Origin: Lytechinus pictus
Taxonomy: Eukaryota
Direction: 5' to 3'
DNA: 64,000 nt
NCBI RefSeq assembly: GCF_037042905.1
Contig: NC_087245.1
Coordinates: 310,001-374,000 of the forward strand
Of this stretch, positions 4,192-28,824 are shown in pieces (within the stretch, counting starts at the first letter, position 1; every line of letters starts with the position of its first letter). The position numbers were made by a program, and so were the translations under genes. Under the pieces are notes generated by a model. That model worked only from the letters and a program-made list of their open reading frames with translations, was not told where the DNA came from and did no database searches.

Positions 4192-4585
4192 AGATAAATT
4201 CCAGTTTTGGTAACGATCTAAAAATGACTTTTTACAGAATCTAATATAATGACCACCTAAGTGTCTGTTTGTATGAATAAAAAATATGTGCCAAAGGATT
4301 CTGGAAGAAATTGTGTGATTGCTGAGAAATAAGCAAAATAAGCGCGGATTCGGTCACTTCCGTCGGGTCTTTATTTTAGCAATAATAATACACTGTCCCA
4401 CGTGTGCCTATCTGTGTTGGTGATCTTCAGTGTGAACATTTTTCAGCGTAGATTTCAAGATTTCACAAAGTTCAGTTTATGTAACTGTACCAGATCTAGA
4501 TCCTCGATGGTATACTGACAATTAAGCCTTGTTTTACAGACTTTCTCATGAAATCAGTGTTTACTGCAAATACTGGAATTTCTCT
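4192..4585. mobile_element. Kolobok-type MITE, second family
   Basis: TTAA|AGATAAATTCCAGT...ACTGGAATTTCTCT|TTAA. Confidence 0.75.
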
Positions 4586-5115
4586 TTAAATCAATTATAG
4601 ATCTAAAATGCTGTAGGGTCATGAGGGTCTTACGATGCATGATGTCTTTTCCCTTTCCGCTGACCAACTGTATGGAGAAATTGGGTTTGGTTTCTGACGC
4701 AGTCAAATAATCGAATCCAACGTACAATCAGTCGCTTGAGATGGTGTGATTGCTACATACCCAACCATATTAAATCGAAACATTACATAATTTCAATACT
4801 GTTACAGCATCTAAAGAATGCAACAACATCCCCCTTTCATCAAATCATCAAACACAACAGATCAATTTAAGAAATCTCTAAAAGCGTACCTCTTTTCTAA
4901 TTAGTCATTTTCTTTTTATCTCCTCTTTTCTAAGACTAAGATTTTTTTAAAGATAGCAAGAGAAAGAAATGGGACGGATAAACGATACAGTGTTCAGTGA
5001 TTTTTGTATTCATTCATTAAAACACATTCCCTAATACAACAGGACCAGTTACAGAATACTGGTTTTTATCTTTGTCCTGGAAAATTACAGTAAAAGTAGC
5101 TTATACAAACATTAA

Positions 5116-5444
5116 AGGAGAATGAAACATAACATAAATTGAAGTTATTGAATTTAAAGAAGATGTCCCACTTTCATTTTCTCATTACATAAACTGATGA
5201 TTATTTGATATTTTCATATAAGTGTTTATGATGTGTCTACCTTGTAAAAAAATTTAGATGCAGCGATGACTTTACACACTTCAGTTGCCAGTGCAGTTGA
5301 GAAGTTTTGCCGATAAAAATGGGAAACTGTAAAATGTAATAACCTTGTTCCTTGTTCGATTTTGATGAAAATTTGAGTGTTTTATTTGTCTGGTTTTACT
5401 ATATCTATTCAGATCATATTATTTTCAGCCTTGAGTGTACCTCT
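5116..5444. mobile_element. Degenerate Kolobok-type MITE
   Basis: TTAA|AGG...CTCT|TTAA; right half resembles 540-672. Confidence 0.5.
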
Positions 5445-6297
5445 TTAAGAGCCGTAATAGTTTGCAAATAATCTAAAATAACTCTAAAAATGGGGTCAAA
5501 CAAGTCCACTTTCACATAATAGTACCATGATTCACTAATAAGTATTTTAAAACACGTAATTCAAGTGCTAATGGCTATTCTATGGATTCATGATTAGGTA
5601 GCATCAGCATTTTTAATGCACTTATAGAAGCCACCTTGGATTTTTTTAAAGGGAAAGTTACCACCTTATTACTTGTGATATTTAACCCTTCAAACAATAT
5701 GGTGTACACATCAAAATCATTTTCAACTGGATATTGTATGAAACTATGAACATTTTAAGTGGGGGAGTCATTTTATAAACCATTTTAAAAGGCATGCATC
5801 TTTGATTTTTGTGGCTAAATGGACATTTGCATATCATTGTAACTAGTCCCAGAATGTTATTTCACCCTTGGAACCATAGTATAGACGCCAAACCCATATC
5901 TTCTAGGTGGATTTCAATAAAATGATGTATGTCCATATTTAAGTAACAACATCCATTTTTGTGGAAGCCATCTGGGATTTTCGGCAGCGGCATAACAGGG
6001 TCAGTGGCCAGGGGGGGGGGGGGGGTGGCAAGAGCCAAAAATTTCCCGGTCATATCATGGTATGAACAGGGGTAATGGTGTAATGAGGAGAATATTTTGA
6101 GAAGGCCAGATATTGCGTATCGGGCAGAATTTATCTTTAAAAAGCGAGCGAGCAAAAATTTTGACCTTTTTAATACAAAAATCAAATTTTTTGATGAATT
6201 TTGAAATGATATCCAGAGAATAATATATTTCACTCTTCTCTCTTTAGATTCCTTTTATTTGTGGTCTGTACGCCACTGTAAACAGGATTCTTTGCGG

Positions 6298-6662
6298 CAG
6301 TAGCGTGAAGAGTAAAAAAAACCAGAGGCGCAGTATAGCACATGTGCTAAAAAGCTGCTTTATATAAGTCCCGAGCGAGCGAAGCGAGCGAGAAAAATCA
6401 CCTTTTCATGATAGTAATAATACTACTAATAATACTTCTCTTATATAGCGCATAATAAACTGAAAGTTTCTCTACGCGCTTTACAATAAAGGAAAAAAAA
6501 TACACATACTGCAAACAAAGAAGAATCTAACTCTGAGCTATTTTTGACATATTCAGTAAATAAAATCATATTCTACACTTTTCCTTTGCTTTTCTTTCCT
6601 CCTTTTTTTAAATTGTTTGTAGAACTTTTGGGGGCCTTGGTCCAACCCTTCCATACGCAGTG
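6298..6662. mobile_element. hAT-like MITE
   Basis: CAGTAGCGT...TACGCAGTG ends; 8-bp TSD CTTTGCGG/CTGTGCGG; internal gcgagcgaagcgagc motif. Confidence 0.55.
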
Positions 6663-6932
6663 CTGTGCGGTTGGGGTCCGGGGCGGAGCCCCTGGAACTT
6701 CTTGATATCAAAGCCATTTAAACCTCGCAGATTGCCGCTATTTTAATCAAATCGCGGGCATATACAGGATATAGCTTTTACACAACACATTTATTCAACC
6801 CAGTTGCGTAATGAACCAATTATTTTGAGGGGGCAAAACATAGCAATGTGGGGGAAATCTGTAAAAAGTCGCCAGCGTGCAAAGCGAGCTGGAAAAAAAA
6901 TTGCCTATTGAAATTAAATAGACCAGTTCGTA

Positions 6933-7340
6933 GTTACTTCATGGACAATTTTGGTCAAATGACCTTTCATTTATTTCATTGTGATAGGCAGATTTCAAAG
7001 CAAGATATTACGTATGCATGCCTTACATAGCAGGATGAAGAAATTGAATAGACCAGGTGACTAGAATAGCACACCAGTAAACACTCCATGAAGGTATTTG
7101 TTGTATTTCTACTTTGAATGCATATTATAGCATTTCATGGTTACTTCATGGACAATTTTGGTCAAATGACCTTTCATATATTTCATTGTGATAGGCAGAT
7201 TTCAAAGCAAGATATTACGTATGCATGCCTTACATAGCAGGGTGAAGAAATTGAATAGACCAGGTGACTAGAATAGCACACCAGTAAACACTCCATGAAG
7301 GTATTTGTTGTATTTCTACTTTGAATGCATATTATAGCAT
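6933..7340. repeat. Near-identical 207-bp tandem duplication
   Basis: gttacttcatggacaattttgg... starts at 6933 and again at 7140, with only a few substitutions. Confidence 0.9.
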
Positions 7341-8073
7341 GCTGTACAATGTACTTGACAAACTGTGAAATACCATAAATACCTTATCATAACTTTGAAA
7401 GTTTATGGATAGAGTGAATGAAATGTGGACATGGGTGTAGTTGATAAGTCTTAAGTCACCGTTCAAATGTCATTTGTGGTCAATTAATGTGGTATTATTA
7501 TTATTATTATTATTATTTATTCGGCAAATAACATTCAAAAATGCATTTCAATGTAAACAATACAAAATAAGAAATATCAACCAGTGGAACGCCAGGGACA
7601 GAAAAAGTTAACTTAATTACTTTGGCATGAAGCCTCCTGTCCCAATTCCAATGGTTGATTTACAATTTATATTAATAACTAAACAATAATAAAATACTCA
7701 TAATTATAAAGGGGTGTAGCATGAGATTAATAAAATATATAAATAAATTTAGTTACTTGTAACTGAAAATGAGTGAAAATGACGGGGAAAGAGAATAAAG
7801 AAAGCTGAATGAAGGTGACAAAAAGAAAGGAAAGGAGAGAGTGGGAGAGAGGGGTGGGAAAGGAAAAGAAAAAGTGACACAGGCAAATGAATTGTGAACG
7901 CACCCAAAATGGTACAATAATACTTAAAATAAGACTTAACTTCTAAGGAAATTATGTCATTATATGAATGGTGTTTTTGTGAATGATTATTTTATAGTAG
8001 TTTTGAAAGTTAGCACTGCTGCTAAATTAAATCGCGTAATGCAGGCGAGACTGCCAGAGGCGTTCCACTTGTT
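7340..8073 (+). mobile_element. Fragmented HINE/Tsp-like element (3' end), interrupted by an AT-rich insertion
   Basis: catcataactttgaaagtttatggat core fragment, and the 3' end gcaggcgagactgccagaggcgttccacttgtt shared with 18250-18282 and 23324-23356. Confidence 0.55.
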
Positions 8074-8129
8074 CTTTTATTTTCCCGGTGTAATCCGCCA
8101 GGGGGGGGGGGGGGGCAACCCCCCCCCCC

Positions 8130-8880
8130 CGCCTGTTACGCCACTGATTTTTGGACATACTGTACAGCTGACTGTCCCTTTAACTTGAACCAATGTATTA
8201 CTTGACCCTTTACACCATGGTTAACTGGTTGAGACACCCACAAGATGATATTAGACGTACTAGGTCGGATTTTATTTAACGTCAGCCATTTTAGACTCAA
8301 CTATTGGAAGCCATGTTGGATTTTTGGACAAACTGGACCACTGACTGTCCTTGTAACCCATCCCAATGTATTACTCCACCCTTGAACATGTTTAAACCAT
8401 GGTTTAGACAGGCGGAAAAACGCATTTGACAGATTTTAATAAACGATTTTGGATGCACCGGGCCACTGAATATCCTTGTCACTTGTCCCAATGTACTTCT
8501 TGACATTCAAAACCACGAATAAAAACAAATTAAAAACACTAATATAGGTAGTGGATGATGGGTATTTTAGGCTTCGGCAGCCAATATGGAAGCCATCTTT
8601 GATTTCCAGCTACACCGAAATAGGATGTTTAGGGTGGACGAAGAGTCAGTTATGTTCATTTTCTGTGAATGTTGGCCATCTTGCACGACATCTTGAATCT
8701 AAACAACTTTCCCGGATTCGGATTTTGCCAGATTTTTAGGGGGGGGGGGGTCAAACCATATATTGACCAACTATTAGTCCAAAATAGGTGTAGAATGGCG
8801 GCTTTATGTTTTGCCAATTTGAATATTATTAACAAATTCAGCATATTTGGATTCAGCAGCCTTGAATTATGCTAAAACAT
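8130..8880 (-). repeat. Old interspersed repeat, inverted relative of 21100-22480 (further pieces at about 5470-5990)
   Basis: gggtcaaaccatatattgacc near 8748-8768 is the reverse complement of about 21115-21135; repeated gccatcttggatttt-type motifs. Confidence 0.6.
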
Positions 8881-11149
8881 TTCACAGGGGCAGCGGAACG
8901 TTTTTTAAATTGGGGGGGGGGGGGTGGCAGACCATGCAAAAACAAATCATAATTAGATGGTCATTTTTTGTGCACGGTTTAAAAAAAGTGCAGCCCCCTC
9001 CTCCCCCGTTTCCAGGGCCCCTGACTTAATTCAGCATTATCACGATTTGCCTAAAGCACCCATCACACTTTTTCGGAATCAGCAGGAATCAAGCAGAAGC
9101 TGGAAAGAAAAAATATTCAAAAAAATCTAGAAATTTTTTGGGAGGAACTTATGAATTCACCAAACTGGAGTTGAAATTCAGTAAATTGACCAGGTGTATC
9201 ATCATACACTAGTAAAAATGAACCGCAATGGAGTCAGATTGATAATTCGTGCTACGATCTTGGAAATATCCTGACTGCATTCTGAGTGCATTCGAAATAT
9301 TTCTGTCATTTCTTTTGGCCGTCCCGAAGGTTTTGGTCATGTTCAAAACATTCGAGGGATATTTTCGAACGGTGTTCGAAGTAGATTTAAATGACCAACT
9401 GGTGGTCAAACAAATAGTCCTTTCATTCAGGCCAATTCTGCTTGATTCGGAATAAGTGTGATGGGGGCTTTTGGCATTCTACTTTTTCTCAAGTATGAAC
9501 CTGTCTAATAACAAAAACAGTCCGCAACCACATTGTACTCGAAGTCAACCGAAGTTTTATGCTGTACAGTGGCGAACCTTGGGTCACGGCATTGGGGGGG
9601 GGGGGGGGGCACCAGTAAAAAAAATTGAGTCTCTAAGTGGGCGCACGAAGCGCGCTCAATAGCCAGGTATTCTGACCTAATATTTTAAGAAATTTGCCAT
9701 TAAACTGATGTATATCTTACTGATCAAATTATTTTTTTTTATAAATATTTTTTTTATATTCAGACATAGACATGATAGAGAAGGGATATAATAAGCAATA
9801 TTTTTATAATCATATACGCACCTGTCTCCCTAAACAAACAATGCGAGCGCAGAGCACGAGCTGAAATTTGTGACTTTTGATTCAGTGACCAAGATGCTGT
9901 ACATGTCATTTTATTTCTTTGTAATAAAGATAATCACGTCCTGTTGGGTATGTGATTACTAATGGATATTGCACCATACCTGTGTACAAAATTATTTATT
10001 TCTATGGGGTGAATTTTTGTGTGCAGCCTTTGAAAGAGTGGGTACTTTATTTTGCTGGCCAGTTTATATATATATATAACATATGTACAGTGTATGTATA
10101 TATGGCTCATGAGAAAGAGACACATATCTCACCAACAAATCAATGCGAGCAAACAGGAAAAAGGTTACCTGTTAGGACTGTTTGTAGTAACTCATGAGGA
10201 TACATATCTCACTACACAGATAATGCGAGTGCCGAGAGCGAGCTGAAATTTCTTTATATTCTGACCTGAGAGCTTGATATTCTAAGCATTTTTGGTACAA
10301 ACAATAGATGCGAGCGTGCGAGCTGAAAATTTTCATGTTTCGATCTGAAGTTTAATGGACGTTTTTAATAAAGAACAAAAGATTATTGCAAATCGAAGCG
10401 GGAGTTCTTTCGACGTTTAGAACTGAAAATGAGACATTCTATTCACCTATTTAATCATGAAAAGTAGGGGGGTTCTAAAGAAATGATGCGAACGCGAAGC
10501 GCGAGCTGAAATTTTTTTTAATTTCAATCTGAAAAGCGGACATTTTGAGCACGATTTTAAATAAAGAACGAGTTGTGTATCTCAATCTCGCTTGCCGATT
10601 TCCGTTTACAATTACAATCTTATTTTATTTTTGCACATTCGGAATTATTGGGGGAGCAAAACGATATGTTTGCCCCCCAATATTTTCATTGGTAGGGCGA
10701 TCGCCCTCCCCCTGCCCCCCAGGATCGACGCCTCTGCAGTCACAATCCACTAATGCGTACGTAAGCACAGACTGGAAATGTTTTATATTCAGACTTTAAG
10801 AGGGGGCAATCACTTTAAGAAGCAGGGATTTCTTAAGGTTTTTAGACTAAAAATCGGACATTCCATGCATTTTTTGTAATCATGAAAAGGAAGGGTATCA
10901 ATGACTGATGCGAGCGCGAAGCGAGCTAAAATTCTTTTATATTTTGACTTGAAAACTAAACACTTTTTACACGTTTTAAAGTAAGAACAAACTCAGATTT
11001 GGCATCTATAATTGAACAAGCTGTGTATCTCAATAAACATAATGCGAGCGCGAGCTGAGAATTTTTGACATTTTTACTTGAAAACTTAACATTTTTACAC
11101 GTTTTTATAGCAAGAACAAGCTGAGATTCGGCATCTGTAAGAAACATAT

Positions 11150-11416: not shown

Positions 11417-11809
11417 CAGTGGCGGACCGTGACCCGGAGGCGACAATGATTGGAGGGGCACTGTATTGTTCGTGGACAATGTTGTGCCCCTCCAATGCCT
11501 CCAATGAGGGCGTATATATATATATATATATTTGGTGTATATTGACTTGAAATTGGGATGTTTTAATACCATTTACTCCCCTTGATGAGGATTATTTATA
11601 TCATTAAACAGACACTGCGAGCATCATGAGTGATGATCACAGAGGCCCAAAGCAAATTACGTTTCATAAAGTTATTAAAAAATGTATTTTTATGTAATAT
11701 AATATGACATGTATAATGTGATATGATATAATATAGTATGGTATAATATAATTATATAATAATTCCTCCTTCCCTCACTACGTTTCTATTCCCCCGTTTT
11801 CTTAGACTT

Positions 11810-12783
11810 AGGAATCCAAATGTCGTCCGTCCGTCCGTCGTCTGTCACCCGTCCGTCACAAACCTTATGACACATAACTCCACAACCGTAAATCACTTTT
11901 CAACCAAACTTGCATGGTAAATGGACTTGGGGGACCTGCATGTTATGCTGCAGTCGGAGGTCACATGGTAAGGTCAAAGGTCATGTTCTGGTCAACGTTA
12001 AAGTTTACATGCAAGACTCTCTTATGACACCTAACTCCGCAACCGTAAGTCAATTTTTAACCAAACTTGGATGGTTGATGGACTTGGGGGACCTGCATGT
12101 TAGGCTGCAGTCGGAGGTCACATGGTAAGGTCAAAGGTCATGTTCTGGTCAACGTTAAAGTTTACATGCAAGACTCTCTTATGACACCTAACTCCGCAAC
12201 CGTAAGTCAATTTTTAACCAAACTTGGATGGTTGATGGACTTGGGGGACCTGCATGTTAGGCTGCAGTCGGAGGTCAAATGGTAAGGTCAAAGGTCATTT
12301 TCAGGTCAGCGTTATAAAGTTGACATGCAAGACTCTTAATGACACCTAACTCCGCAACCGTAAGTCACTTTTCAACCAAATTTGCATGGTAGATGGACTT
12401 GGGGGACCTGCATATTATGCTGCAGTTGGAGCTCTCATGGTAAGGTCAAAGGTCATGTTCAGGTCAACGTTAAAGTTTATATGCAAGATTCTCTTATGAC
12501 ACCTAGCTCCGCAACCGTAAGTCACTTTTCAACCAAACTTGGATGGTAGATGTACTTAGGCGACCTGCTCGTTATGCTGCAATCGGAGGTCACATGCTAA
12601 GGTCAAAGTTCATTTTCAGGTCAACATGAAAGTTTACGTGCAAGACTCATATGACAAGTGTTATTCCATCCCAGTCATTTCAAAATGAAGTTTCGATACA
12701 ATTCTGTTGCGTACCCTTGCAAATCACGATATTTCTGGTAATTTTATAAATGGGCGAGACACAAAATCGCTTTTGCCTTGTTT
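11810..12783 (+). mobile_element. HINE/Tsp-like (Helentron-associated) element with five ~157-bp tandem monomers
   Basis: (GTCC)n microsatellite at about 11824-11856; monomers start at 11867, 12024, 12181, 12339 and 12496; 3' ggcgagac subterminal motif then cttgtttc into a T-rich flank. Confidence 0.75.
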
Positions 12784-13337
12784 CTTTCTTTTTGTGTCCA
12801 GCCGATGAGGATGGGGCACGTGCCCCTGTAGTTACACCGCTGATGCTGTACATCATAATTGTTTTGATAGTCCATATGACAACTAGCCGGATAAATATCT
12901 ATATTGTTTACAATGTTTCATCGATGTCCCTCCTTTTGTTTGTGAGTTATTAGATGTTTACCTTTTGGATCAAACTCTCAATGTTCACGATGTTTGCAGA
13001 AGAATGGATGGACACCAAACCTTTCAATCCCTACCATGTTCTTTATGTATCTTCTCGACTCTCTGAACTTTCCAACTAATGATACTCGTCTGGTAGGCTG
13101 GGTTATTCAGACAATATCCAAGGAGAATATCCACATCAGAACTGCTCTTTACTTCAAACCATCTTATTGCAAAGAGCTAGTAGTACCTTTGTCCACGATA
13201 CAAAATTAGAATCAAAGATTGATCTGCTAATTGAATATCTGAGGTCAGCCAGGAATGGCAAGAGGGTTCTAAGCCAAGTTGTCAGCTATTTGCGTTTACG
13301 GTACCAACATACTGGTAAGAATTCTTTCGGCATGCAT

Positions 13338-13576
13338 CACTGGCGTAATGAGCAAAAATATTCAGGGGGCAAGATATGGCGTAATACGCGTAAAAATATA
13401 TAAATAGTTGCGAGGGAGCAAAAATTTCGACATTTTTATTACAAAAATCAAATTTTGTGATAGATTGTGATATGATTTTCAGAAAATAATATCATATTTC
13501 ACCTTCTTTTGTTTATTTTTCTCTTTTTTTCTGGGTCGTGAAAAATTGGGGGGGGGGGGGGGTCTTTACGTAACTG
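13338..13576. mobile_element. hAT-like MITE
   Basis: CACTGGCGTAA...TTACGTAACTG; 8-bp TSD GCATGCAT/GCATGCAA; poly-G tract. Confidence 0.65.
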
Positions 13577-13640
13577 GCATGCAAGATCTTCTCGTCCATT
13601 GCGCTGGGACTCCCACGCGGTCTGCCTGATGGGTGCTCTC

Positions 13641-16600
13641 TATGAGGCGCCGAATGTACCAATATTATATAGAACAATTATTTGTTATATAATCATTATT
13701 TATTAAATAATAACTATTATTTATATATAATTTACATTTTATTTGTAAATAACTACTATTATATAAAATATCATTTCTAATTATTTATATATAATTCCAA
13801 GTAATACTTCATTATTTGTAAATAATAATAGTTCGACATTCCATTATTTATAAATAATGATTATTTGTTTTTCATTATTTATAAATAATGATTATTTGTT
13901 TTTCATTATTTATAAATAATGATTATTTGTTTTTCATTATTTATAAATAATGATTATTTGTTTTTCATTATTTATAAATAATGATTATTTGTTTTTCATT
14001 ATTTACAAATAATGATTATTTGTTTTTCATTATTTATAAATAATGATTATTTGTTTTTCATTATTTATAAATAATTTGTTGAGTTTTCCATTATTTATAA
14101 ATAATGATTATTTGTTAAATAATGAAAACGTCTACTTCATTATTTATAAATAATTTTTTCGAGTGCACCATTATTCTCATTATTTATAAATAATCATTAT
14201 TTAATGTTCGAGTTTTCCATTATTTATAAATAAAGATTATTTGTTAAATAATGAAATATCTACTTCATTATTTATAAATAATAATTTTGTTTCAATATCC
14301 CATTAATCATTATTTATAAACAATTTTTACAGTTTGCCATTATATACAAATAATCATTATTTATATACAAATAACCATTATTTATTAAATAATGCCATTA
14401 TTTATTAAATAATGCCATTATTTATTAAATAATGCCATTATTTATTAAATAATGGAAAACTCGCTATAACATGCAAATGTGGGACCGCCCATGATATGAA
14501 TATTCATGATGCGATTTCCTTTTTCGTGATTTTTCTTCACAAATTTTTGTCCATTTCCTCTTCATAATGACATTTCTTGAAGCAATTTTCTAGGGATATG
14601 GTCTGATTGTAATATTCTTCATTTTCTATATAACTTCGTCTTCGTAGAAATATCAAAAAGTGTAATTTTATACGATTTTTCCTACAGTTCACAATCCCCA
14701 TAGGCGCGCGTGTACGGTAGGGACAACCGGTGAATCGACGGAGTGCTCTTCATCGAAATACTACGTTGGTTGGTCCCCGGAAGTGGCGGGCGGAATTTAG
14801 CCCGAATCCTCGATGGAAGTCGATCAAGTGCATATGAGCTGAGAGAGTGAAATATCAGTGTACTTGTACAGGCCCTTCTACTTTTTATAAATATTTCTTG
14901 TTGCTTTTTTTGTTAAGTTAATTTTTCCTGGTGTAGAGATAAGTTTCAGTTCTAATAATGCACTTCAAATACATTTTGGAGTGTCTGTTTGAGGCGTTTG
15001 GGGCGATTTCACCCTGGCCCCAAAATGCTCGCAACGACAATACGGGGGCATGATGACCCCTAAATTTTTAAAAACTTATTTTTCTATTGAAAATTATCAC
15101 AAAATTTACCAAAAGTGTGCACGAAAGCCTTCGTATTTCACTTTTAAAACTCAAAAAAGTGCCCAAATGACAAGCTTGGTCGCTTCGCTGTGTCGCTTTC
15201 AACTTGAGAACGTTTACGCGTCTGCTTCCCCCCCCCCCCCCCTCCTCCGAAAGAAATTATGTATACGGCCATGCTCTAAAGAGCCTGGCACATTGATTTA
15301 TGTATACTTCATTTTCATTATTTTTATCTCATTATCATCATGGCCTTACGCAGAATTTTTTCCGGGGGGGGGGTGGGGGGAGCAGGACGCGCGTAAACTT
15401 TCTCATAAAAATCTTGAAAAAGCGAAGCAACCAAGCTTGTCATTTGAGCTTGGTCGCGTCGCTGTCTCGCTTTCAAGATTTTTTTGAGAAACTTTACGCG
15501 CGTCCTAGCTGCTCCCCCCCCCCCCCCCCCCCCCCGGTAAAAATTCTGTGTAAGGCCATGATGATAATGTGATAAAAATAATGAAAATGAAAAGTACATA
15601 TAAATCAATGTGCCATATGCTCTTTTGAGCATGGCCGTTCACAGAATTTCTTTCGGGGGGTGGGGGCAGACGCGCGTAAACGTTCTCAAGTTGAAAGCGA
15701 GACAGCGAAGCGACCAAGCTTGTCATTTGGGCTTGGTCCCGTGGCTGTCTCGCTTTCAAGATTTTTTTGAGAAAGTTTACGCGCGTCGTGCTCCGGCCCC
15801 GGCCCCCCTGGAAAAAATTCAGCGTAAGGCCATGTTGATAATGAGATAAAAATAATGAAAATGAAAGTATACATAAATCAATGTGCCAGGCTCTTTAGAG
15901 CATGGCCGTATACAGAATTTCTTTCGGAGGAGGGGGGGGGGGAAGCAGACGCGTAAACGTTCTCAAGTTGAAAGCGACACAGCGAAGCGACCAAGCTTGT
16001 CATTTGGGCACTTTTTGGAGTTTTAAAAGTGAAATACGAAGGCTTTCGTGCACACTTTTGGTGAATTTTGAGATAATTTTCAATAGAAAAATAAGTTTTT
16101 AAAAATTTAGGGGTCATCATGCCCCCGTATTGTCGTTGCGAGCATTTTGGGGCCAGGGTGAAATCGCCCCAAACGCCTCAAACAGACACTCCAAAATGTA
16201 TTTGAAGTGCATTATTAGAACTGAAACTTATCTCTACACCAGGAAAAATTAACTTAACAAAAAAAGCAACAAGAAATATTTATAAAAAGTAGAAGGGCCT
16301 GTACAAGTACACTGATATTTCACTCTCTCAGCTCATATGCACTTGATCGACTTCCATCGAGGATTCGGGCTAAATTCCGCCCGCCACTTCCGGGGACCAA
16401 CCAACGTAGTATTTCGATGAAGAGCACTCCGTCGATTCACCGGTTGTCCCTACCGTACACGCGCGCCTATGGGGATTGTGAACTGTAGGAAAAATCGTAT
16501 AAAATTACACTTTTTGATATTTCTACGAAGACGAAGTTATATAGAAAATGAAGAATATTGCAATCAGACCATATCCCTAGAAAATTGCTTCAAGAAATGT

Positions 16601-17529
16601 CATTATGAAGAGGAAATGGACAAAAATTTGTGAAGAAAAATCACGAAAAAGGAAATCGCATCATGAATATTCATATCATGGGCGGTCCCACATTTGCATG
16701 TTATAGCGAGTTTTCCATTATTTAATAAATAATGGCATTATTTAATAAATAATGGCATTATTTAATAAATAATGGCATTATTTAATAAATAATGGTTATT
16801 TGTATATAAATAATGATTATTTGTATATAATGGCAAACTGTAAAAATTGTTTATAAATAATGATTAATGGGATATTGAAACAAAATTATTATTTATAAAT
16901 AATGAAGTAGATATTTCATTATTTAACAAATAATCTTTATTTATAAATAATGGAAAACTCGAACATTAAATAATGATTATTTATAAATAATGAGAATAAT
17001 GGTGCACTCGAAAAAATTATTTATAAATAATGAAGTAGACGTTTTCATTATTTAACAAATAATCATTATTTATAAATAATGGAAAACTCAACAAATTATT
17101 TATAAATAATGAAAAACAAATAATCATTATTTATAAATAATGAAAAACAAATAATCATTATTTGTAAATAATGAAAAACAAATAATCATTATTTATAAAT
17201 AATGAAAAACAAATAATCATTATTTATAAATAATGAAAAACAAATAATCATTATTTATAAATAATGAAAAACAAATAATCATTATTTATAAATAATGAAA
17301 AACAAATAATCATTATTTATAAATAATGGAATGTCGAACTATTATTATTTACAAATAATGAAGTATTACTTGGAATTATATATAAATAATTAGAAATGAT
17401 ATTTTATATAATAGTAGTTATTTACAAATAAAATGTAAATTATATATAAATAATAGTTATTATTTAATAAATAATGATTATATAACAAATAATTGTTCTA
17501 TATAATATTGGTACATTCGGCGCCTCATA
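13641..17529. mobile_element. 3,889-bp foldback DNA transposon with ~1.7-kb TIRs and 6-bp TSD (IS3EU-like, non-autonomous)
   Basis: Ends TATGAGGCGCCGAATGTACC...GGTACATTCGGCGCCTCATA; TSD GCTCTC at 13635-13640 and 17530-17535. Mirrored coordinates sum to 31170 from the termini to at least 15050/16120, so there is no net indel over 1.4 kb. No transposase ORF. Confidence 0.9.
13842..14455. repeat. AT-rich 31-bp and 20-bp tandem repeats in the left TIR (mirrored at about 16715-17328)
   Basis: About 7 copies of tttttcattatttataaataatgattatttg, then degenerate copies, then 3-4 copies of tttattaaataatgccatta. Confidence 0.9.
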
Positions 17530-17647
17530 GCTCTCGGGCATTGTCTTCTTGTGATGCACGCCTTTGCGCTGAGCCACCCACGCTTTCTACCTGTTGGATG
17601 CTCTCAAGCGCTGTGTACGGCAAACCTCGATTATAATTTACTCCGGG

Positions 17648-18283
17648 TTTTGTCTCGCCGCTTTTCCGACGGCGGCGGCGGAGTAGTCAACGTTGAAACC
17701 TTAAGTTAAATTGTTGAAATGTCATCATAACTTAAAAAGTCTATGGATCTAGTTCATGAAACTTAGACATAAGAGCTATCAAGTATCCCTGAACATCCTG
17801 TGCTAGTTTCAGGTCTCATAACCAAGGCCAAAGGTCATTTAGGGTCATCGAACTTTGGTCATGTTGGGGTATCCGTTGAATTGTCATCATAAAACAGTTT
17901 GTGGATCTAGTTCATGAAACTTGGACATAAGCGCAAGCATGTATCCCTGAACATCCTGTGTGAGTTTCAAGTCACTTGACCAAGATCAAAAGTCATTTAA
18001 GGTCAACGAACTTTGGCCATGTTGGGAGTATTTGTTGAATTGGCATCATAACATAAAAAGTTTATGTATGTAGTTCATGAAACATAGACATAAGGGGGTT
18101 AAAGTATCACTGAGTTTTTTAGTCTTAGGTCACATGATCAAGGTCAAAGGTCAGGGTCATTTTGGGCCAATGAACGAAGTATATTGATTATCATGATTAT
18201 GAATGTTTTCTTTTGTGAATAATTAGTCAATAGTTGTGTTAAAAGTAATGCAGGCGAGACTACCAGAGGCGTTAAACTTGTTT
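17648..18283 (+). mobile_element. HINE/Tsp-like element with ~160-bp monomers
   Basis: 5' tttgtctcgcc and 3' ggcgagac subterminal inverted repeat, (GGC)n microsatellite, three core monomers, T-rich flanks without a clear TSD. Confidence 0.75.
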
Positions 18284-18375: not shown

Positions 18376-21084
18376 GAGTCCAGGATAGAAGGGATCGAAC
18401 CTTGTTTTTTTAGATATACAATGTTTTTTTATGTTTTTTTTTCAATTCGAGGGTGCTGATTCCGAATCTGAATGATGCCACTCATGTAACCTTAAGCATT
18501 TTCTGCAAATTGGCAAAATCCAATATGGCCGCCAAAATATTCAAATTACCCATGAAAATCATAAAATCGTCCACACATTGGCTATAAAGTACATGCAGTT
18601 GTGCTGCCGGAGTAAAATACTATGTGAAAAAAATATTTTTCACGAAATATTTATTTTCTTGATATTCAAAATGGCCGCCATAGACCCCTGTACAATATGA
18701 ATGGGGAAAATTAATTTTCACAAAAGTGCCAGCTCTGAAATGCAAGTAGTAATGATCTATGGGTAAAGTAATGTATGAAAACATGATTGCTAACGATATA
18801 TATCATTTGTTATGTCATGTATGTGATAAATCCTGTATTTTGATATTCAAAATGGCCTCCAAAAGCCCTAACACTATTATGTACAATGTGAATGGGGACA
18901 AAAAAAATCACAAGAGTGAACACAAAAATGCATTTTGTTAAGATAAACGAATGGAATACTGACTAAAAACATTATTGTTAACGAAATTTATTATTTAACA
19001 TGCCATGTATGTGATAAATCCTGTATTTTGATATTTAAAATGGCCGCCAAAGGCCCTAAAATTTTAATGTACAATGTGAGAGAGGACAAAAACAATCACA
19101 AGGTGAGCACTAAAACGCATGTTTTTGTGGTAAATTAGTGGAATACTGCCTTAAAATATACTTTTCAACGAAATATATAATTCGGGTTTCATGTTTGTGT
19201 AAACTATTGTATTTTTACTTTCAAAATGGCCGCCAAAGACATTGACTGTAGTATGTACAATCGATCTGGGAAACCAATTTTCACAGGAGTCAGCACCATA
19301 AAATGCATATAATTGTGATCTAAGAGTAAAGTATTGTCTGAAAACATAATTTCTAACAAGATATATCATTTATTCTGCAAGGAAGAGATAAATAATGTGT
19401 TTTGAAAGACAAAATAGCCGCTACAGGCCCTAACGGTAGGCCTATTATGTACTATGTGAATGGGAACATATAATTTTAACAGAATTTGGCTTTGCTTGAC
19501 TAAATGGTGTTGCATGTTTGAGTGTAATATCGTCTGAAAATATGATTTTTAATGAAATAGATGATTTTTTATGCTATTTAGTTGATAAATGCTATATATT
19601 TTAACATTCATAATGGCTGCAATGTGCTCTTTTTGTGTGGAAATTATCGTTCCCCATTCAAATTTTACATATTAAGATAAGGGACTATGGCGGCCATTTT
19701 TCAATTTCAAAATGCAGCATTTATCACCTTTATGACACAAGCTATGACATATTCGTTAGAAATCATTGGGTTTAGACAATACTTTACACTGTCCCCAGTT
19801 ACAATGTATATACTACTTTGGGGTCCTATGGCAGCCATTTTGAATTTCAAAGTAAGGTCTTTATCACCTTCTCGACCAATATGTGATGTATTTAGTTAGA
19901 AATCATGTTCAAGACAATATTTTACCTGTACATCACATAGTTCTCATTCTGGTGAAAATGAGTTTCCCTATACGCATGTTACATAATTTAGTTAGGGCTT
20001 GTAGCGGCCATTTTGATAGTCAAAATACAGCTAGTATTTATCACCTACATGGCAGAGGAAATGCTCTATTTCATTAAAAAAAAATCAAACAATGTTTTCC
20101 TTATACAACATAATAATATGGATTTCATAGTCAGGCAAATCCTAATTCTTTCAAAATTATTTGTCCCCATTTACATTGTAGATAAAAGTGTAAGTGCCCA
20201 TAGGGGCCATTTTGAATTTCACAATACAGCATTTATCTCATGCATGACAAAGGAAATGATATGTTTCGCTAGAAAACATGTTTTAGGCAATATTTCACTC
20301 GTAGATTACAAATACATTCATTTTATTGTTCTTACTCTTGTGAAAATTAGTTTCTTTATTCGCTTTGATCATAATACAAGTAGGGCCTATGGCAGCCATT
20401 TTGAATGTCAAAATACAGCATAATTACCGAAATGGCAAGGGAAATGATATGTATCGTTATAAATCATTGTAGTCAGACATCGTTACACCAATATTTCGCA
20501 ATTGTTGGCATTTTATAGTCAAGCATATTCAAATGTTGTGAAAATTATTTGTCTTCTTTTATATAGTGTACACAGTATAAGGGGTCTATGACAGCCATTT
20601 TGAAATACCGCATTTATCACATTAGATATACAAATTACATAGTTTTGTTAATAATCATGTTTTCAGACAGTAGTCTACTCGTAGGTCACAATCATATGCA
20701 ATAATAGTGCTCTTGTTTAAACATTATTTTCCCCCATTCATATTCTACATAATAAAGTATACAGGGGCTTATGGCGGCCAGTTTGAATATCAATAAAATC
20801 AATATTTGTTCAAATATCGCTTTTCCCAACGAGTATTTTACTTCTGCACAACAACTACATGTAGATGCATTTTATGTGTGGGCAATTTTATGATTTTCAT
20901 GGGTATTTGCATATTTTGACGGCCATATTGGGTTTTGCCAATTTGCGGAAAATGCTCAAGGTTACAAGAGTGGCATCATTCAGATTCGGAATCAGCACCC
21001 TCGAATTGACAAGAAACCATAAGTAACATTGTAAATCTAAAAAACAAGGTTCGACCCATTCTCTATGGGGCCTATCCTGTACTA
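18376..21084. mobile_element. 2.7-kb degenerate foldback (Academ-like, non-autonomous)
   Basis: GAGTCCAGGATAG...CTATCCTGTACTA ends with TTT on both sides; the outer ~300 bp are clear inverted repeats; ~185-bp internal modules with tcaaaatggccgcc flip orientation at about 19620-19690. Confidence 0.7.
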
Positions 21085-21099
21085 TTTATCACTATTTTT

Positions 21100-22480
21100 T
21101 GCAATCTTTAGACGGGTCAATATATGGTTTGACCCGGAACGAATAGCAACAAATGATTTTTAACTGTTTCTGGCAGTATTTGACCTCAGGAATAACATAC
21201 TAACAATCTACCAAATCCTCATACGGGAAAGTAGTTATTTTTAAGATGGCGTCCAAGATGGCCGCCATTCACTGAAAATGGATACAACTCATTATCCACC
21301 CTTGAATCCTACTCCGGTTCATATTCCATGGTCAAGTGGGTAAACGAGTTTATTGATACAAGATAGGGTGAATATTAGCACTCCAGTGTACCAGGAAAAT
21401 CCAAGATGGGGCCCAAAATGGCTGCCGTAGGCTAAAAAATCCACAATTCATCTATTAAGTAGCTTTAATTTGGATTCTCTTCAATGGTTTTAATGGTGAA
21501 GTAGTACATCGGGACAAGTTACAAGGACAGCAAGTGGTCTGGTGTGTCCAAAAATCCAAGATGGCTTCCAAAAATTGAGTTTAAAATGGCTGCTAATACT
21601 TAAAATGGACATAGCTCATATCATATCCACCTGTGAGATATTATTTTGGTGTCTAGACCATGGTTTCAATGGTCAAATAATACATTGGGATAAGTTACAA
21701 GGATATTCAGTGGTCCGGTATGCTCAAAAATCTAAGATGGCTTCCAAAAATGGAGTTAAAAAAATGCTGTTGCTACTTAAAGAAAAAACCCAACATAGTT
21801 TGTTCAATATCCGGGAATATGATTTTTGTGCCTATACCATGGTTGAATGGGTCAAATAATACATTGGGATAAGTTACACGGACGATGGGTGGTCAAGTAT
21901 GTCCAAAAGTCCACGGTGGCTTAAAAATAGTATAAATTAGCCGCTGGTATTTACAAATGGACATAGTGTTCATGTAATATCCGTCAAGGGCATATTATTT
22001 TGCTGTCTATATCATGGTTTTAAAAGTCAGAAAACTGGTAACAAGGACAGTCAGTGGTCCAGTGTGTCGAAAATCCAAGATGGCTTTCAAAAATCGGAGT
22101 CTAAAATGACTGCTGTTACTTTCAAAATGGACATAGTTCATATAAAATCCACCAAGGAGATGTGATTTCGGTGTCCACACTATATGGTTTCATGGATAAA
22201 ATCATACGTTTGGACTGGTTGTCCAGTTTGCCTAAAATTCCAAGAGGGTTTTCAAAAAAGGCATCTAAAATTACTCATATCACTCAATAAATGTCTGAGT
22301 TCTACAATATCTATCTGTAAGAAATAATGTTGGTGTCTAAATTGTTGGTGTCTAAATTGTGGTATGAAGGGTCAAATAATACATTCGGACAAGTAACAAG
22401 GATGGTAAGTATTACATTTTGTCAAAAATATCCATTGCGGATTCTAAAATTTCATCAAAATGGGTGCTGTTACCAACTCA
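21100..22480 (+). repeat. Interspersed repeat built of ~180-bp degenerate modules
   Basis: Recurrent aaaatccaagatggcttccaaaa...aaaatggacatag...ggtcaaataatacattgggataagttac motifs. Confidence 0.7.
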
Positions 22481-22484
22481 TGGA

Positions 22485-23357
22485 CCTAATCTTAACCGAA
22501 GGTTAAGTTTTTGAAATGACAGCATAACTTAGAAAGTATATGGACCTAGTTCATGAAACTTGGCCATAAGGTTAATCAAGTATTACTGAACATCCTGCCT
22601 GAGTTTCATGTCACATGACCAAGGTCAAAGGTCATTTAGGGTCAATGAATTTAGACCATGTTGGGGGAATCAACATCAAAATCTTAACCTAAGGTTAAGT
22701 TTTTGAAATGTCATCATAACTTAGAAAATATATGGACCTAGTTCATGAAACTTGGATATAAGGTTAATCAAGTATCACTGAACATCCTGCATGAGTTTCA
22801 CATCACATGACCAAGGTCAAAGGTCATTTAGGGTCAATGAACTTTGGCCGAATTGGGGGTATCTGTTGAATTACCATCATAACTTTGAAAGTTTATGGAT
22901 CTGATTCATGAAACTTGGACATAATAGTAATCAAGTATCACTGAACATCCTGTGCGCATTTTAGGTCACATGACCAAGGTCAAAGGTCAATGAACTTTGG
23001 CCATAATGGGGGTATATGTTGAATTACCATCATTACTTTGAAAGTTTATGGATCAGACTCGTGAAACTTGGACATAAGAGTAATCAAGTATCACTGAACA
23101 TCCTGTGCGAGTTTCAGGTCACATGATCAAGGTCAAAGGTCATGTAAGGTCAATGAACTTTGGTCACCTTGGGGGTATTTGTTGAATTACCATTATATCT
23201 CTGTAAGTGTATTGGTCTAGTTCATAAAACGTGGACATAAGAGTAACCAAGTATCACTGAACATCTTGTGCGAGTTATAGTAGTTTTCAAAGTCAGCACT
23301 GCTGCTATATTGAATCGCGTGATGCAGGTGAGACCGCCAGAGGCATTCCACTTGTTT
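22485..23357 (+). mobile_element. HINE/Tsp-like element, 5' truncated, about 5 monomers of 154-192 bp
   Basis: Same core as 17648-18283; 3' end gcaggtgagaccgccagaggcattccacttgtttc. Confidence 0.75.
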
Positions 23358-23688
23358 CATATATATACCATAGTTTTTGATGGTTTCTTGTCAATTCGAG
23401 GGTGCTGATTCAGTGATTCTGAATGTGCCACTCATCTAAACTTGAGCAGCTTCCGCAATTTGCCGCCAAAATATGCAAATTACCCATGAATATCATAAAA
23501 TTGCCCGCACATTGGCTATAAAATGCATGAAATTGTATGGCAGGAGTGAAACACTCTCTGAAAAAAAAAGATTTATGACAAAATTTTGTTTTCTTGATAT
23601 TCCAAATGGCCGCCATAGACCCCTGTATACTCTATTATGTACGATATGAATAGGGAAAATGATTTTCACAAAATTGAGCACTAATCTG

Positions 23689-24453
23689 TTTAGTTGAGTT
23701 TATGAATAACATTAACATATTTACATGAATGAATACATGTATAATACATATTTACAAGAATGTGTTTGTATAACATGAATCATATAAATGCAATTATAAC
23801 ATAACATAAGCATAGTATATATTAAAACATTATGATACCGCATGTGATATCAGCATATAATACGAAAGAGTAACATCATGTGGTTTGTCTTGATGCAGTT
23901 TCACCTGACAAGAAGCAAATACCATAAAAATTGATCGTATGCATGAACATAAATTATAAATCGTATGGGTGATTTTGTACCAAATGAAATGCTGTTAAAG
24001 GGAGAACCAAAAGTTAGCACAAGTGCTAGTCGAGAATGGTTCCCCAAAAGGATCAAAGTGCAATGTATCTACTCTACTAAAACAACTTTCTTTGATTTTT
24101 TATTCCAAACTCATATTAATCATCAAACTTCATTAATCAAGTGATTTTTCAGATTTTTACGAAATGAAAACCGTGTTCTTTTCTCTCAAATACTCTGGGG
24201 CAATCTATTCCAAAACTTCGCTCCAACAAAAGATATAGAAAAAGTGCCATGTGTCGTGTTACATTTGGGGAGTCTTAGCATGGAATGTTCTTTGCCTCTA
24301 GTTTTGTAACTATGATTTAACAACTCAAAGTATTGCTGTAAAGAATGTGGTAAATGTTCCTTGTGTAAATCATAAAACAAATGTTGATACTGCAAATCTA
24401 AAACCCCAGACTGACGAATAGTGGCCTATAGCTTGTTCTAAGTCGAGAAAATG
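23689..24453 (-). mobile_element. 5'-truncated LINE (CR1/L2-group) 3' end
   Basis: ORF 24186-24395 contains HSYKTRG...LRLPKCNTTHGTFSISFVGAKFWNRLP, typical of the C-terminal end of CR1/L2-group ORF2; 7-bp TSD TAATCTG at 23682-23688 and 24454-24460; simple-repeat tail. Confidence 0.8.
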
Positions 24454-25611
24454 TAATCTGCAAGTAATTGTGATCTATAGAACGAATTATTGTATGAAAA
24501 TCATCATTACTAACGAGATATATCACTTATTATGTCATGTATGGAAAAATTGCTGTATTTTGATATTCAAAATAGCCGCCATTGGCCCAAACAGTATTAT
24601 GCACAATCGCAATTGGGATAAGAAAAATCACAAGAGTGATCACTAAAATGCAAATTATAATGTATTCAAAGATTATGTATTAACATAAACGAGGGGAATA
24701 CTGACTAAAATTAAAATAATTGTTAACGAAATATATTAAGCGAAGTCAAATTCTGTCAAAATTATATGTCCCCTATTAGGGCCTATAAGGCAGCCATTTT
24801 GAATGTCAAAGTACAGCATTTATTACATTCATGATCAATATGTGATGTATTAGTTATAAATCATGTTTAATATGTTTAAGACAATATTTTTATTCGTACA
24901 TCACAGTTACATGCATTTTATGATTCTCACTCTTGTGAAAATAGTTTCCCTAAATGCATGTTACATAATTTTGTTAGGGCTTGTGGCGGCTATTTTTAAT
25001 GTCAAAATACAGTATTTATCACCTACATGACAGAAGAAATGCTATATTTCATAAAAATCATGTTTTCAAATATTATTGTACTCATAACAACAGGATTAAT
25101 GATAGATTTCATACTCAAGCAAATCCAAATTCTTACAAAATATATGTCCACATTTACATTGTAGATACTGTTCTATTTTTATTTTGACAATGCAGCATTT
25201 ATCACATGCATGACAAAAGAAATTATATTTTCTGCTAGAAAACATTTTCAGACAATATTTTAATCGTAGATCACAATTACAAGCGTGCATTTTATGGTTC
25301 TTACTCTTGTGAAAATTAGTTTCTCCTTTCTCATTGTACATACTAAATATAGGGCATATGGCGCCAAATTTGAATTTCAAAATACAGCATTTATCACATA
25401 CATTGCATATTAAACATCATAATTCGTTAAAAGGTATGTTTTAGTCAGTATTCCACTCGTTTATCTTAATAATATGCATTGTAGTACTCTTGTGATTTTT
25501 TTTGTCCCCATTGACATTGTACATAATACTGCTTGGGCGTTTGGTAGCATTTTGAATATCAAAATACGTCATTGAACACAAACATGACATAACAAATTAT
25601 ACATTTCGTTA

Positions 25612-25855
25612 CACTCTAAAAAAATATTGGGTAAACATGCTCCGTGGGGGTAATTATGTGTCCAACCAACACTGGGCATTTCTTTTGGGCATTTCATTTT
25701 TCCAGTGTGATGAAAATTTTGCCCATTCTAAAGTAATTGCTATTCATATTTTTCAATCTTACTGGACAATGCTTCCAGCATTGAGAAAATTCTGCCCCAA
25801 ATTTGTTGGACTCATAATTACCCTCGTGCTGGTTAAAATTTTGCCCAATACTTTT
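25612..25855. mobile_element. CAC-terminal MITE (EnSpm/CACTA-like)
   Basis: ta|CACTCTAAAAAAATATTGGGTAAA start; inverted homolog of 32736-32990. Confidence 0.65.
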
Positions 25856-26234
25856 AGCAATCATGTTTTTATTCATGACTTCGCTCAAAGATCACAATTA
25901 CTTGCATTTTAGTGCTCACTTTTGTGAAAAAATAGTTTTCCCTATTCATATTGTACATAAGAGAGTATACAGGGGTCTATGGTGGCCATTTTGAATATCA
26001 AGAAAAAAATTTCTCAAAATCATATTTTATAGCCAATGTGCGGGCAATTGTATGATTTTCATGGGTAATTTGCATATTTTGGCGGCCATATTGGATTTTG
26101 CCAATTTGTGGAAAATGCTTAAGGTTACACGAGTGGCATCATTTAGATTCGTACTCGGCACCCTCGAATTGAAAGGAAACCATCGAAAAATATTGTATAT
26201 ATGAAAAAAAAAGTTTTAGTCCATTTTCTATTGG

Positions 26235-28824
26235 GGGTCATTCCATCTGGATTCACCCAGTGGTTGCACCCGACCCTCTCAGTTTTTGTTGTAAATTGGT
26301 ACACATACAATTCCCCATGGCCCAAACACAAAACAAAAAAATTAGTCAAATCGGTCCGTCGGTTCTCGCGCTACGGCCAGCCCTTTTCTCATTGTTTTGA
26401 CAAAAATGGGCGTGACTTTCAACTTTCAATGGCCATTGCGTCGTAACGTGTTGACCAATTTTCACGAAACTGGTACCATTCAAAAGGAAATTAGAGAGAA
26501 ATCCCAAACATGCATCAAATAATGTATTGCAGCGATTTAAAAGGTCATGACCTTTGACCTAAACTTTGACCTTAAGTTTGACTCCCGGACAAATAATTTT
26601 TTTAACTTGATTTTCGTGTCTGTTAATTATTAGTATGATATGGATAAAATATGTTAAAACCAATGATGATATTTCATTCCTTCACCTTTTAAAACCCTTC
26701 CAAAGATACCAAGTATCTGATCTGAAATTTCACTCTAGTCCCACATACTGATATTCATGTTAGTAAAGTGTTTACCAGTCCAATGATATATGATTTCTTC
26801 CAATCTTAAGTTACAGTATGCAAACAGATGAAAAGAAATTAAGCTCATCAGTTAACAAATGAAACATTAAACACTTATGCTCATGAATAGGTATCTGTTT
26901 TATAGGCATTTTGATGTTGGGCAATATATAATAACTCATTATTAGAAAACTGCTGGGAACTGCAATATACTGCTTTCTAGCTCCCCCTAAGTGAAAACAC
27001 CCTTGAGATCCTTGAAGCATCAGCGTTGGATACATTCTGTATAATGATGATGCTAGAGATGGATGATCAATTGGACAGATAATATTGTATCTAGCTACCC
27101 AGCAGGTATCCTTTTCGCTGCCTCCCCATTGAAAAAAGACAATAACTTCATATTGCACAAGTTGAGATATTAAGCATTTTTTGTTTTTCCAAAGCTGCTC
27201 ATAACTATTTTATTTCTTTTTTACAATATTCTTTTATCATCAAATTGTTGAGTGTATATATGCCTATTTGTATTTAAGGCTCCCAAAACAAATATTTTGT
27301 TTCTTTTTTTTTTAGATATTGAAGAAATGTACCGTAGATAGGCCTCCTCTGGGAAAGTCAAAGCGAATGCTCGTTTTCTCCATGGAAAAAAGCTGTACAT
27401 TTACATGTATCTACAGGTGGACCAGAATTCCATTCAGTTTTATTATCACTTGCTTCATTACCATGAAATAATGTGTCATTGTGTACATGTATTTCAAGGG
27501 GAAAATAATACCTTAGATACACAGAGGGCGCCCTGATGAAAATAAGTTTAATACACATGTTCTTCATCTGTGGGTACTGCATTTAACTGAGTATTTGCTT
27601 AAATTCTACATTTACACCAATATGTCAAAACGTAACAACAAAATTTATATGGGGGTTTTGGCCTGAAATAGGCATTCTACAATTTGATGATAAAGGAATA
27701 CCTTAGAAATAAAATAGTATGGAGTGACTAATAAAAAAAGGTTTATGCTTAATATATTATCTTGTGCAAAATGTAGAAACTGCGTTTTGCCGATTTACTA
27801 AAAGTTACTTTTCAGAAAGCAATTAGGAAAACTGAATGTGTCATGTGAAAAAAAGTGGCTTACTGACTACTTTTCTGAAAAAAAAAACTGAAAAAAAAGT
27901 CAGACACTGCGTTTTTCCATAGGGGGTGCAGTGTACAGATGGATAAATGTACCTGCTGGATAGTTAGAAACAATATTGTCTCTCCAATCGATCATCCATC
28001 TCTAACATCATCATCATCATCAAGGATCTGAAGGATGTATCCACTTTGGGGGAGTACGTACAGCTTACTAGAAAGCAGGATATTGCAGTTCCCAGCAGTT
28101 TTCTAATAATGAGTTATTATATATTGCCCAACTGAACATCAAAATGCCTAAACAGATACCTATTCATGAGCATAAATGTTTAATGTTTCATTTGTTAACT
28201 GATGAGTTTAATTTCTTTTCATCTGTTTGCATACTGTAATTTAAGATTGGAAGAAATCATATATCAAAGGGCTGGTAAACACTTTACTAACATGAATATC
28301 AGTATGTGGGACTAGAGTGAAATTTCAGATCAGATACTTGGTATCTTTGGAAGAGTTTTAAAAGGTGAAGAAATAAAATATCATCATTGGTTTTAACATA
28401 TTTTGTCAATATTATACTAATAATTAACATACACGAAAATCAAGTTAAAAAATTATTTGTCCGGGGGTCAAACTCAAGGTCAAAGTAAAGGTCAAAGGTC
28501 ATGACCTTATAAATCGCTCCAATACATTATTTGATGCATGTTTGGATTCCTCTCTGAATTTCCTTTTGAATGGTTCCAGTTTCGTGAAAATTTGGTCAAC
28601 ACGTAACGAAGCAATGGCCGTTGAAAGTTGAAGGTCGCGCCCATTTTTGTCAAAACAAGGAGAAAAGGGCGGGCTGTAGCGCGAAAACCGACGGACCGAT
28701 TTGACTTATTTTTTTGTTTTGTGCTTGGGCCATGGGGAATTTTATGTGTACAAATTACAACGAATTCTGAGAGGGTCGGGTGCAAAATTGCACATTCATT
28801 GGGTGAATCGGCATGGAATGACCC
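26235..28824. mobile_element. 2,590-bp foldback with ~0.9-kb TIRs and 4-bp TSD (Sola2-like, non-autonomous)
   Basis: TTGG|GGGTCATTCCAT...ATGGAATGACCC|TTGG; arms 26235-27110 and 27950-28824 are inverted homologs; weaker symmetry continues inward. Confidence 0.85.

Follow-up and report, generated by a model that had tools for sequence, protein, structure and literature searches.

A foldback element with IS3EU-type ends and a layered centre in the sea urchin Lytechinus pictus

The element and its genomic setting

The window analysed here, a stretch of 64,000 nucleotides of the Lytechinus pictus genome (contig NC_087245.1, positions 310,001 to 374,000), contains a single recognised gene. It encodes an adenylyl cyclase that is 97% identical to a Lytechinus variegatus protein, and its first coding exon lies at 35005-35679. 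A Pfam scan covered 74 of the 102 window frames of at least 75 amino acids, with the 28 frames within tandem arrays left out, and the adenylyl cyclase alone passed the curated cut-off. Located 17.5 kb upstream of this exon, amid other repeats, is a foldback element of 3,889 bp (13641-17529, 30% GC) that has TAT..ATA ends and no coding domain, and of which the window holds one copy. A perfect 6-bp duplication, GCTCTC, flanks it at 13635-13640 (+) and 17530-17535 (+), while a 6-bp direct repeat occurs between random position pairs of the window at a rate of 0.0005. The initial annotation had described a near-perfect palindrome of about 3.9 kb with TAT..ATA ends and a perfect 6-bp target-site duplication (TSD); both parts of this description are confirmed, with arms of 1,697 and 1,694 bp. 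The element is almost certainly a real mobile element, and its status as a non-autonomous foldback is supported by its ends, by the recurrence of its terminus in a related organism (see below) and by the absence of coding domains.

No Pfam match at or above the curated cut-off was found in the eight element frames of at least 75 amino acids or in any of the 20 inner-domain frames of at least 25 amino acids (all 20 scanned), and neither a THAP domain nor a transposase remnant was seen in the scanned frames. A sub-threshold match to DUF6165 in one of the 20 inner-domain frames (E 0.028) was rejected. Eleven Rfam matches, all to miRNA-hairpin models and far under the gathering scores, were likewise rejected as effects of hairpin structure.

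The DNA into which the element inserted is itself a degenerate direct duplication with a period of 70 bp, as the initial annotation had proposed for the empty site. Its first unit (13599-13640, +) is interrupted by the element and its second lies at 17564-17605 (+), with 36 of 45 columns identical and a score of 45, whereas no more than 25 was reached in any of 2,000 shuffles. Two units were found and no more. Its continuation across the empty site shows that both flanks come from one place, and no link between this duplication and the element is evident. A long open frame was not found at the reconstructed empty site, with or without the neighbouring miniature inverted-repeat transposable element (MITE).

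Near-identical arms and a layered centre

The left arm (13641-15337, +; 1,697 bp) and the right arm (15836-17529, -; 1,694 bp) make up 3,391 of the 3,889 bp of the element. In a gapped alignment they show 1,688 matches, five substitutions and two indels (a poly-C tract of 15 versus 11 and one additional T), which corresponds to 99.7% identity. Compared without gaps from the ends inward, they run through 1,601 bp with no indel and five mismatches, and the only mismatch of the outer 1,458 bp is at 14610/16560. The earlier estimates by eye, no net indel over 1.4 kb and about one mismatch in the outer 1.45 kb, were thus accurate. Separate inverted-repeat detection placed the arms at 13640-15241 and 15929-17530. 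A smooth gradient of identity along the arm was considered as well (1/1,390 versus 4/296 mismatches, p 0.004), and was set aside since the boundary had been picked afterwards.

Each arm is modular. The outermost ~22 bp form a GC-balanced tip (13641-13662, +; mirror at 17508-17529) that has just two matches in the window, the element's own two ends, and that is likely the end at which a transposase would cleave. Inward of the tip follows an AT-rich outer domain (13663-14460, +; mirror at 16710-17507, -) built on an 18-bp self-complementary word, and the GC content of 13641-14460 is 15%. Within the element, the 9-base core of this word is found 68 times, compared with two occurrences in the remaining 60 kb. 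The domain holds a 31-bp array of ten copies (13808-14116) and a 20-bp array of six copies (14335-14454), mirrored at 17054-17362 and 16716-16835, and the repeat number is equal in both arms. By analogy with Galileo (described in PMC3573991), these arrays are likely secondary, putative transposase-binding sites. The tandem arrays, like the layered centre described below, are absent from the initial annotation. Next comes a unique inner domain of 570 bp and 40% GC (14461-15030, +; mirror at 16140-16709), in which a CpG-rich core at 14640-14860 reaches a CpG observed/expected ratio of 1.4, compared with 0.72 for the window. The innermost module of the arm is a copy of a dispersed MITE-like repeat (15030-15273, +; mirror at 15901-16140), with 72% identity, over 218 columns, to a copy that stands alone at about 63467-63733. 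Long arms that occupy most of the element, a modular build of tandem repeats and an inner domain, and the lack of coding capacity are features that the element shares with FB-type foldbacks.

The centre consists of halves of this small dispersed repeat, which meet in a fold-back with a 9-nt loop and were afterwards duplicated over 283 bp. With B and A as two versions of the right half of the MITE, S as a 65-bp spacer and lower case for reverse complements, the order of segments is B S a, A s b, A s b. Spacer S lies at 15274-15338 (+), and its inverted copies are found at 15836-15900 (98% identical) and 15561-15629 (87%). Two MITE half-copies form a central hairpin at 15339-15560. Within it, the fold-back junction (15430-15454) has 8-bp arms and a 9-nt loop and sits beside an 8-bp palindrome of the MITE. 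A second hairpin at 15630-15834 carries another copy of the junction at 15713-15737, so that the junction copies are 283 bp apart. This spacing matches a tandem duplication on the right side with a unit of 283 bp (15421-16006, +; 2.1 copies, 86% matches). The element as a whole is therefore palindromic around the first junction, with a tandem duplication of 283 bp added on the right side. As both the MITE-like repeat and spacer S are present in the two arms, one arm was very probably copied from the other as its mirror.

Had this mirroring happened once, the left unit should be equally distant from the two copies of the duplicated unit, the inner looped-out copy (U1) and the outer copy (U2). 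In 15163-15330, all 19 diagnostic events instead group it with U2 and none with U1, as read from a single three-sequence alignment with a boundary chosen post hoc and with several events in or beside a C-tract. Three further events in this interval are private to the left unit. Substitutions over the same interval number 1/164 between the left unit and U2, 17/158 between the left unit and U1, and 16/159 between U1 and U2, whereas in 15331-15432 all three pairs are 10-15% apart (10/102, 15/102 and 15/108). Spacer S taken alone repeats the contrast, with its 98% identity to the outer and 87% to the inner copy. Two layers are thus present, an old mirror and a recent recopying that extends from the tip to about 15337, and the arms have very probably been mirror-copied repeatedly, at least twice. 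It follows that arm identity dates the last arm-to-arm copying and not the origin of the element. The initial annotation had called the element young; the near-identity of its arms bears this out for the last copying, while the centre retains a layer that is 10-15% diverged. Because the flanking duplication is intact, the insertion is probably recent as well.

A simpler history would be that of a deletion derivative, in which a young insertion with long ancestral terminal inverted repeats (TIRs) lost its middle and its founder was mirrored once. The perfect TSD and the arm divergence of 0.3% would suit such a history, and derivatives reduced to two TIRs are described as common (PMC3573991). 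The centre, however, is not a leftover middle, as it is a 9-nt fold junction that is present twice, and the jump from 0.6% divergence to U2 to about 11% to U1 requires a second copying after the duplication. In the cut-and-paste model, moreover, transposition does not itself equalise arms. We regard a simple deletion derivative as unlikely.

That the second arm was created or homogenised by a fold-back read or by consensus polishing is very improbable. Palindromes are difficult to sequence (PMC4057610), and short-read polishing could remove a few true differences between arms. An artefact of this kind would nonetheless have to account for differing flanks that meet at the 6-bp duplication and continue the 70-bp duplication across the empty site, for arms that differ at seven places (one of them a homopolymer length) and for a centre that is asymmetric by 283 bp. 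In addition, polishing is not expected to turn a divergence of 10% into one of 0.6%.

The bases of the two central hairpins, at 15338 and 15835, are exactly where the recent tract stops. As single strands, these hairpins are predicted to fold with 97-102 and 72-73 kcal/mol. The predicted fold of the core consists of two separate domains on the minus strand, while a nested fold is favoured on the plus strand, and on either strand the two local hairpins come within about 11 kcal/mol of the best predicted fold. Such a boundary raises the possibility that arms are regenerated during transposition itself, whereby one strand is nicked at one end and replication folds back at the central hairpins to yield a palindromic copy. 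Enzymes of the IS3-like and integrase-like kinds nick a single strand at each end, which would suit a replicative model of this type, as would the position of the boundary and the two-domain fold of the minus strand. On the other hand, the plus strand favours the nested fold, and ordinary repair primed at MITE homology predicts the same tract boundary. We therefore consider regeneration during transposition quite improbable. Equally speculative is its generalisation, that sea-urchin IS3EU transposons rebuild themselves as palindromes while moving, with replication from a nicked end folding back or switching template at internal hairpins and each copy being a fresh mirror of one end. If this were true, the element would be a record of the cycle, in which an old junction, its duplicate and a newly made 1.7-kb stem ending at the hairpin bases can be read. 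The preferred reading remains that of an old mirror followed by a later recopying of the arm.

Terminus, target-site duplication and superfamily

Two abutted elements can be ruled out as the source of the palindrome, as it contains no internal terminus. A terminus of this kind does recur elsewhere. Nine public sequencing runs from one related organism share 0.04-0.10 of a query made of flank plus tip, and four of the nine, representing at most three samples, were aligned at 80% likeness to 12780-13838 only. In all four, the summed contig depth, which is not a measure of copy number, was 1,291-10,885 at 13644-13679 and 0 at 13572-13607; individual contigs, among those listed, had depths of about 11-96. 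Depth was also 0 over the unique flank at 12852-13211 in the four runs, which therefore hold the repeated terminus but not this locus and gave neither an empty allele nor a read spanning the element. The terminus is a repeated end with varied neighbours in the related organism. Sub-terminal contigs, among those listed, diverge from the window by roughly 5-12%. Contigs joined on opposite strands at 13690/13838 were seen in three of the four runs, in a part of the arm that consists of palindromic words. The terminal pattern had no match in viral contigs or in prokaryote genomes, and the array pattern had none in viral contigs. Two metagenome contigs that matched the terminal pattern were dismissed as chance, being GC-rich DNA (60% and 68%) with nothing alike beyond the pattern.

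The depth in the boundary bin amounts to 0.8-2.9 base equivalents, which fits a start near 13641 to within about two bases and does not separate TAT from CTAT. TSD lengths of 6, 4 or 2 bp only are compatible with the sequence. Among these, a 4-bp reading, with CTAT..ATAG ends and a CTCT duplication, had been noted in the initial annotation as an alternative and fits as well. The 6-bp reading is favoured over it with a likelihood ratio of 3.8, as calculated from local base frequencies at one insertion, because the 4-bp reading requires two chance matches and the 6-bp reading one.

Under the 6-bp reading, the element has the TA..TA termini of IS3EU/GingerRoot and, at this one insertion, also their TSD length. 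IS3EU families are described as having TA..TA ends with a usually 6-bp TSD and as forming one lineage with GingerRoot (PMC10045372), whose TSDs are GC-rich (PMC6839031) and are resembled by GCTCTC. Fungal IS3EU families have TAYGG..CCRTA ends and TIRs "longer than 30 bp" (PMC12730594). Among ten fungal IS3EU rows from the supplement of that paper, six start with TATGGAG, and the first eight bases of the element are matched, with one gap, by two of the six (8/9 columns). The Repbase rule for non-autonomous elements aligns positions 1-11 and allows at most one mismatch (PMC4455052). Without gaps, the ten fungal rows, which represent fungal families only, share TAYG with the element and stay short of this agreement (e.g. 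5/11 by eye). Judged from its ends and from one duplication, the element probably belongs to IS3EU/GingerRoot, and a transposase of the IS3EU type is its likely partner. The initial annotation had already recognised an IS3EU signature. The rule that it invoked, TAY..RTA ends with a 6-bp TSD, is correct in print (PMC10045372, PMC12730594), while its application here concerns a single insertion.

Other assignments were considered. Polinton/Maverick elements share the 6-bp TSD and have AG..CT-type ends, and Ginger1 and Ginger2 have TG..CA ends, neither of which agrees with TA..TA. Galileo, of the P superfamily, has a 7-bp TSD, whereas 6, 4 or 2 bp fit here. More generally, the same foldback could have CTAT..ATAG ends with 4-bp CTCT, or could depend on a transposase of another superfamily. 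We know of no superfamily that combines CT..AG ends with a 4-bp TSD. The 4-bp reading is nevertheless compatible with the sequence, and the depth boundary is not resolved to a single base. The foldback form, moreover, arises in several superfamilies, and Galileo turned out to be P-type (PMC3573991, PMC2775673). Against this stand the additional chance match, the published signature of TA..TA with 6 bp (PMC10045372) and the resemblance of the terminus to fungal IS3EU starts (PMC12730594 supplement), so that an origin of this kind is unlikely.

Proposed history and relation to known systems

Taken jointly, it is moderately probable that the element is a non-autonomous DNA transposon moved in trans by an IS3EU/GingerRoot-type transposase and that copying from one of its arms to the other took place two or more times. 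The starting point may have been a single transposon end in which two MITE-like copies stood head to head, about 1.4 kb away from the tip. DNA synthesis would then have folded back within one MITE, beside its 8-bp palindrome and leaving a 9-nt loop, and would have copied the end as a mirror. Subsequently, the 283-bp unit on the right side, junction included, would have been tandemly duplicated, possibly when the a and b halves, as direct repeats, underwent unequal exchange. Much later, the opposite arm would have served as the template for a new copy of the stretch between the tip and about 15337. Break repair or template switching that was primed at MITE homology is the most likely route, and the looped-out copy would have been left about 10% diverged. 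Precedents are found for the proposed fold-back behind the first mirror (PMC6007334) and, in the repair from the other TIR proposed for TIR extension in Galileo, for the recopying of the arm (PMC3573991).

Functionally, two identical ends with palindromic AT-rich word arrays could serve as a transposase substrate, with the enzyme supplied in trans and joining the TA ends, at a 6-bp stagger, to the target. We propose no function in the host. The cutting and joining reactions of IS3EU transposases are described as largely unstudied (PMC11934779). At 3.9 kb, the element is small enough for amplification and cloning and might therefore be used as a donor substrate in tests of these reactions. A search of the open literature, with Repbase, Dfam and subscription papers outside its scope, found no published description of a foldback with IS3EU-type ends. 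The element offers a clean example of this combination, and what is new here is a layered centre that records repeated recopying of the arms. Since near-identical arms can be renewed, as is seen within one locus, arm identity is unfit for dating such elements.

Knowledge of foldback elements, including those of sea urchins, goes back to the 1980s. The TU elements of Strongylocentrotus purpuratus (Liebermann et al. 1983) reportedly are foldbacks with an outer domain of tandem repeats and an inner unique domain. They are said to have 15-bp repeats and an 8-bp TSD and are likened to the present element by description only. Among the Drosophila foldbacks, FB, Galileo and Tetris are similar in their long modular inverted arms, which combine a flanking part, tandem repeats and an inner domain, and the repeats of FB are 27-31 bp long (PMC7642927, PMC3573991, PMC2775673, PMC4079207). 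The middle of Drosophila foldbacks is non-coding, as it is here. In contrast to them, the element has arms with equal repeat numbers and a centre that is a 9-nt fold junction in a captured MITE-like repeat. In Galileo, the TIRs are extended by recruitment of inner sequence, for which repair from the opposite TIR has been proposed (PMC3573991), but Galileo is P-type with a 7-bp TSD, unlike the TA..TA ends and 6 bp found here. Broken chromosomes and gene amplification are the contexts in which fold-back priming at short inverted repeats has been described, and it likewise yields an inverted duplication that has a short repeat and a small loop at its centre (PMC6007334). The product in the present case differs in that it is bounded by transposon ends and a TSD.

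The likeness to IS3EU/GingerRoot lies in TA..TA ends, a 6-bp TSD, a GC-rich target and terminal inverted repeats, and the start TATG is common to the element and fungal IS3EU families. The fifth base, however, is A in the element and G in the fungal families. GingerRoot TIRs are 100-150 bp long (PMC6839031), whereas the arms of the element measure 1.7 kb. A final difference from IS3EU/GingerRoot is that the element has no transposase and almost no middle region.

Tandem arrays and the adenylate cyclase gene

A gene resembling adenylate cyclase type 3 has forward-strand exons at 35005-35679, 45353-45484 and 46412-46525, the first showing 97% identity to the Lytechinus variegatus protein. Two long tandem arrays with strong strand skew were also found, one of 66-bp units (37769-39450) and one of 67-bp units (approximately 55386-60800), the latter within a presumed intron of this gene. 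Shorter arrays with units of 153-192 bp, adjoining microsatellite-like ends, occur at 11710-12770, 17697-18153 and 22494-23280 and resemble Helentron-associated repeats; in those near the main element, the non-coding foldback at 13641-17529, the unit measures 157-158 bp. In addition, a degenerate unit of ~185 bp forms a cluster at 18380-26234, where its presence in both orientations gives many inverted matches (65-85%). This cluster may represent a decayed foldback whose arms consist of satellite repeats.

Other transposon-like sequences

An older second foldback (26235-28824) has arms of ~870 bp, which align with 790 matches and 57 mismatches over 908 columns. Its GGG..CCC ends and 4-bp TTGG duplication form a signature that resembles Sola2. 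A MITE-like insertion (13338-13576) lies 64 bp to the left of the main element and is flanked by an 8-bp duplication matching at 7/8 positions; judged by its ends and duplication length, it is hAT-like. Parts of this insertion are very abundant in organism A, the related organism whose public sequencing runs contain the main element's terminus. The MITE-like repeat that makes up the centre of the main element also has a free-standing copy at 63467-63733, around which no target duplication was found.

Core and outer arrays of the main element's arms

The CpG-rich core of the arm (14640-14860) and its mirror have an observed/expected ratio of 1.4 and contain promoter-like words. Should the core be a transposon promoter, the copy in each arm would point towards the other, and hairpin or double-stranded RNA could result. 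In the outer arm arrays (13808-14454 and 16716-17362), the 31-bp period corresponds to about three helical turns and the 20-bp period to about two, and these periods may reflect phased protein-binding sites. Comparable to these arrays, repeats of 27-31 bp are also described for Drosophila FB.
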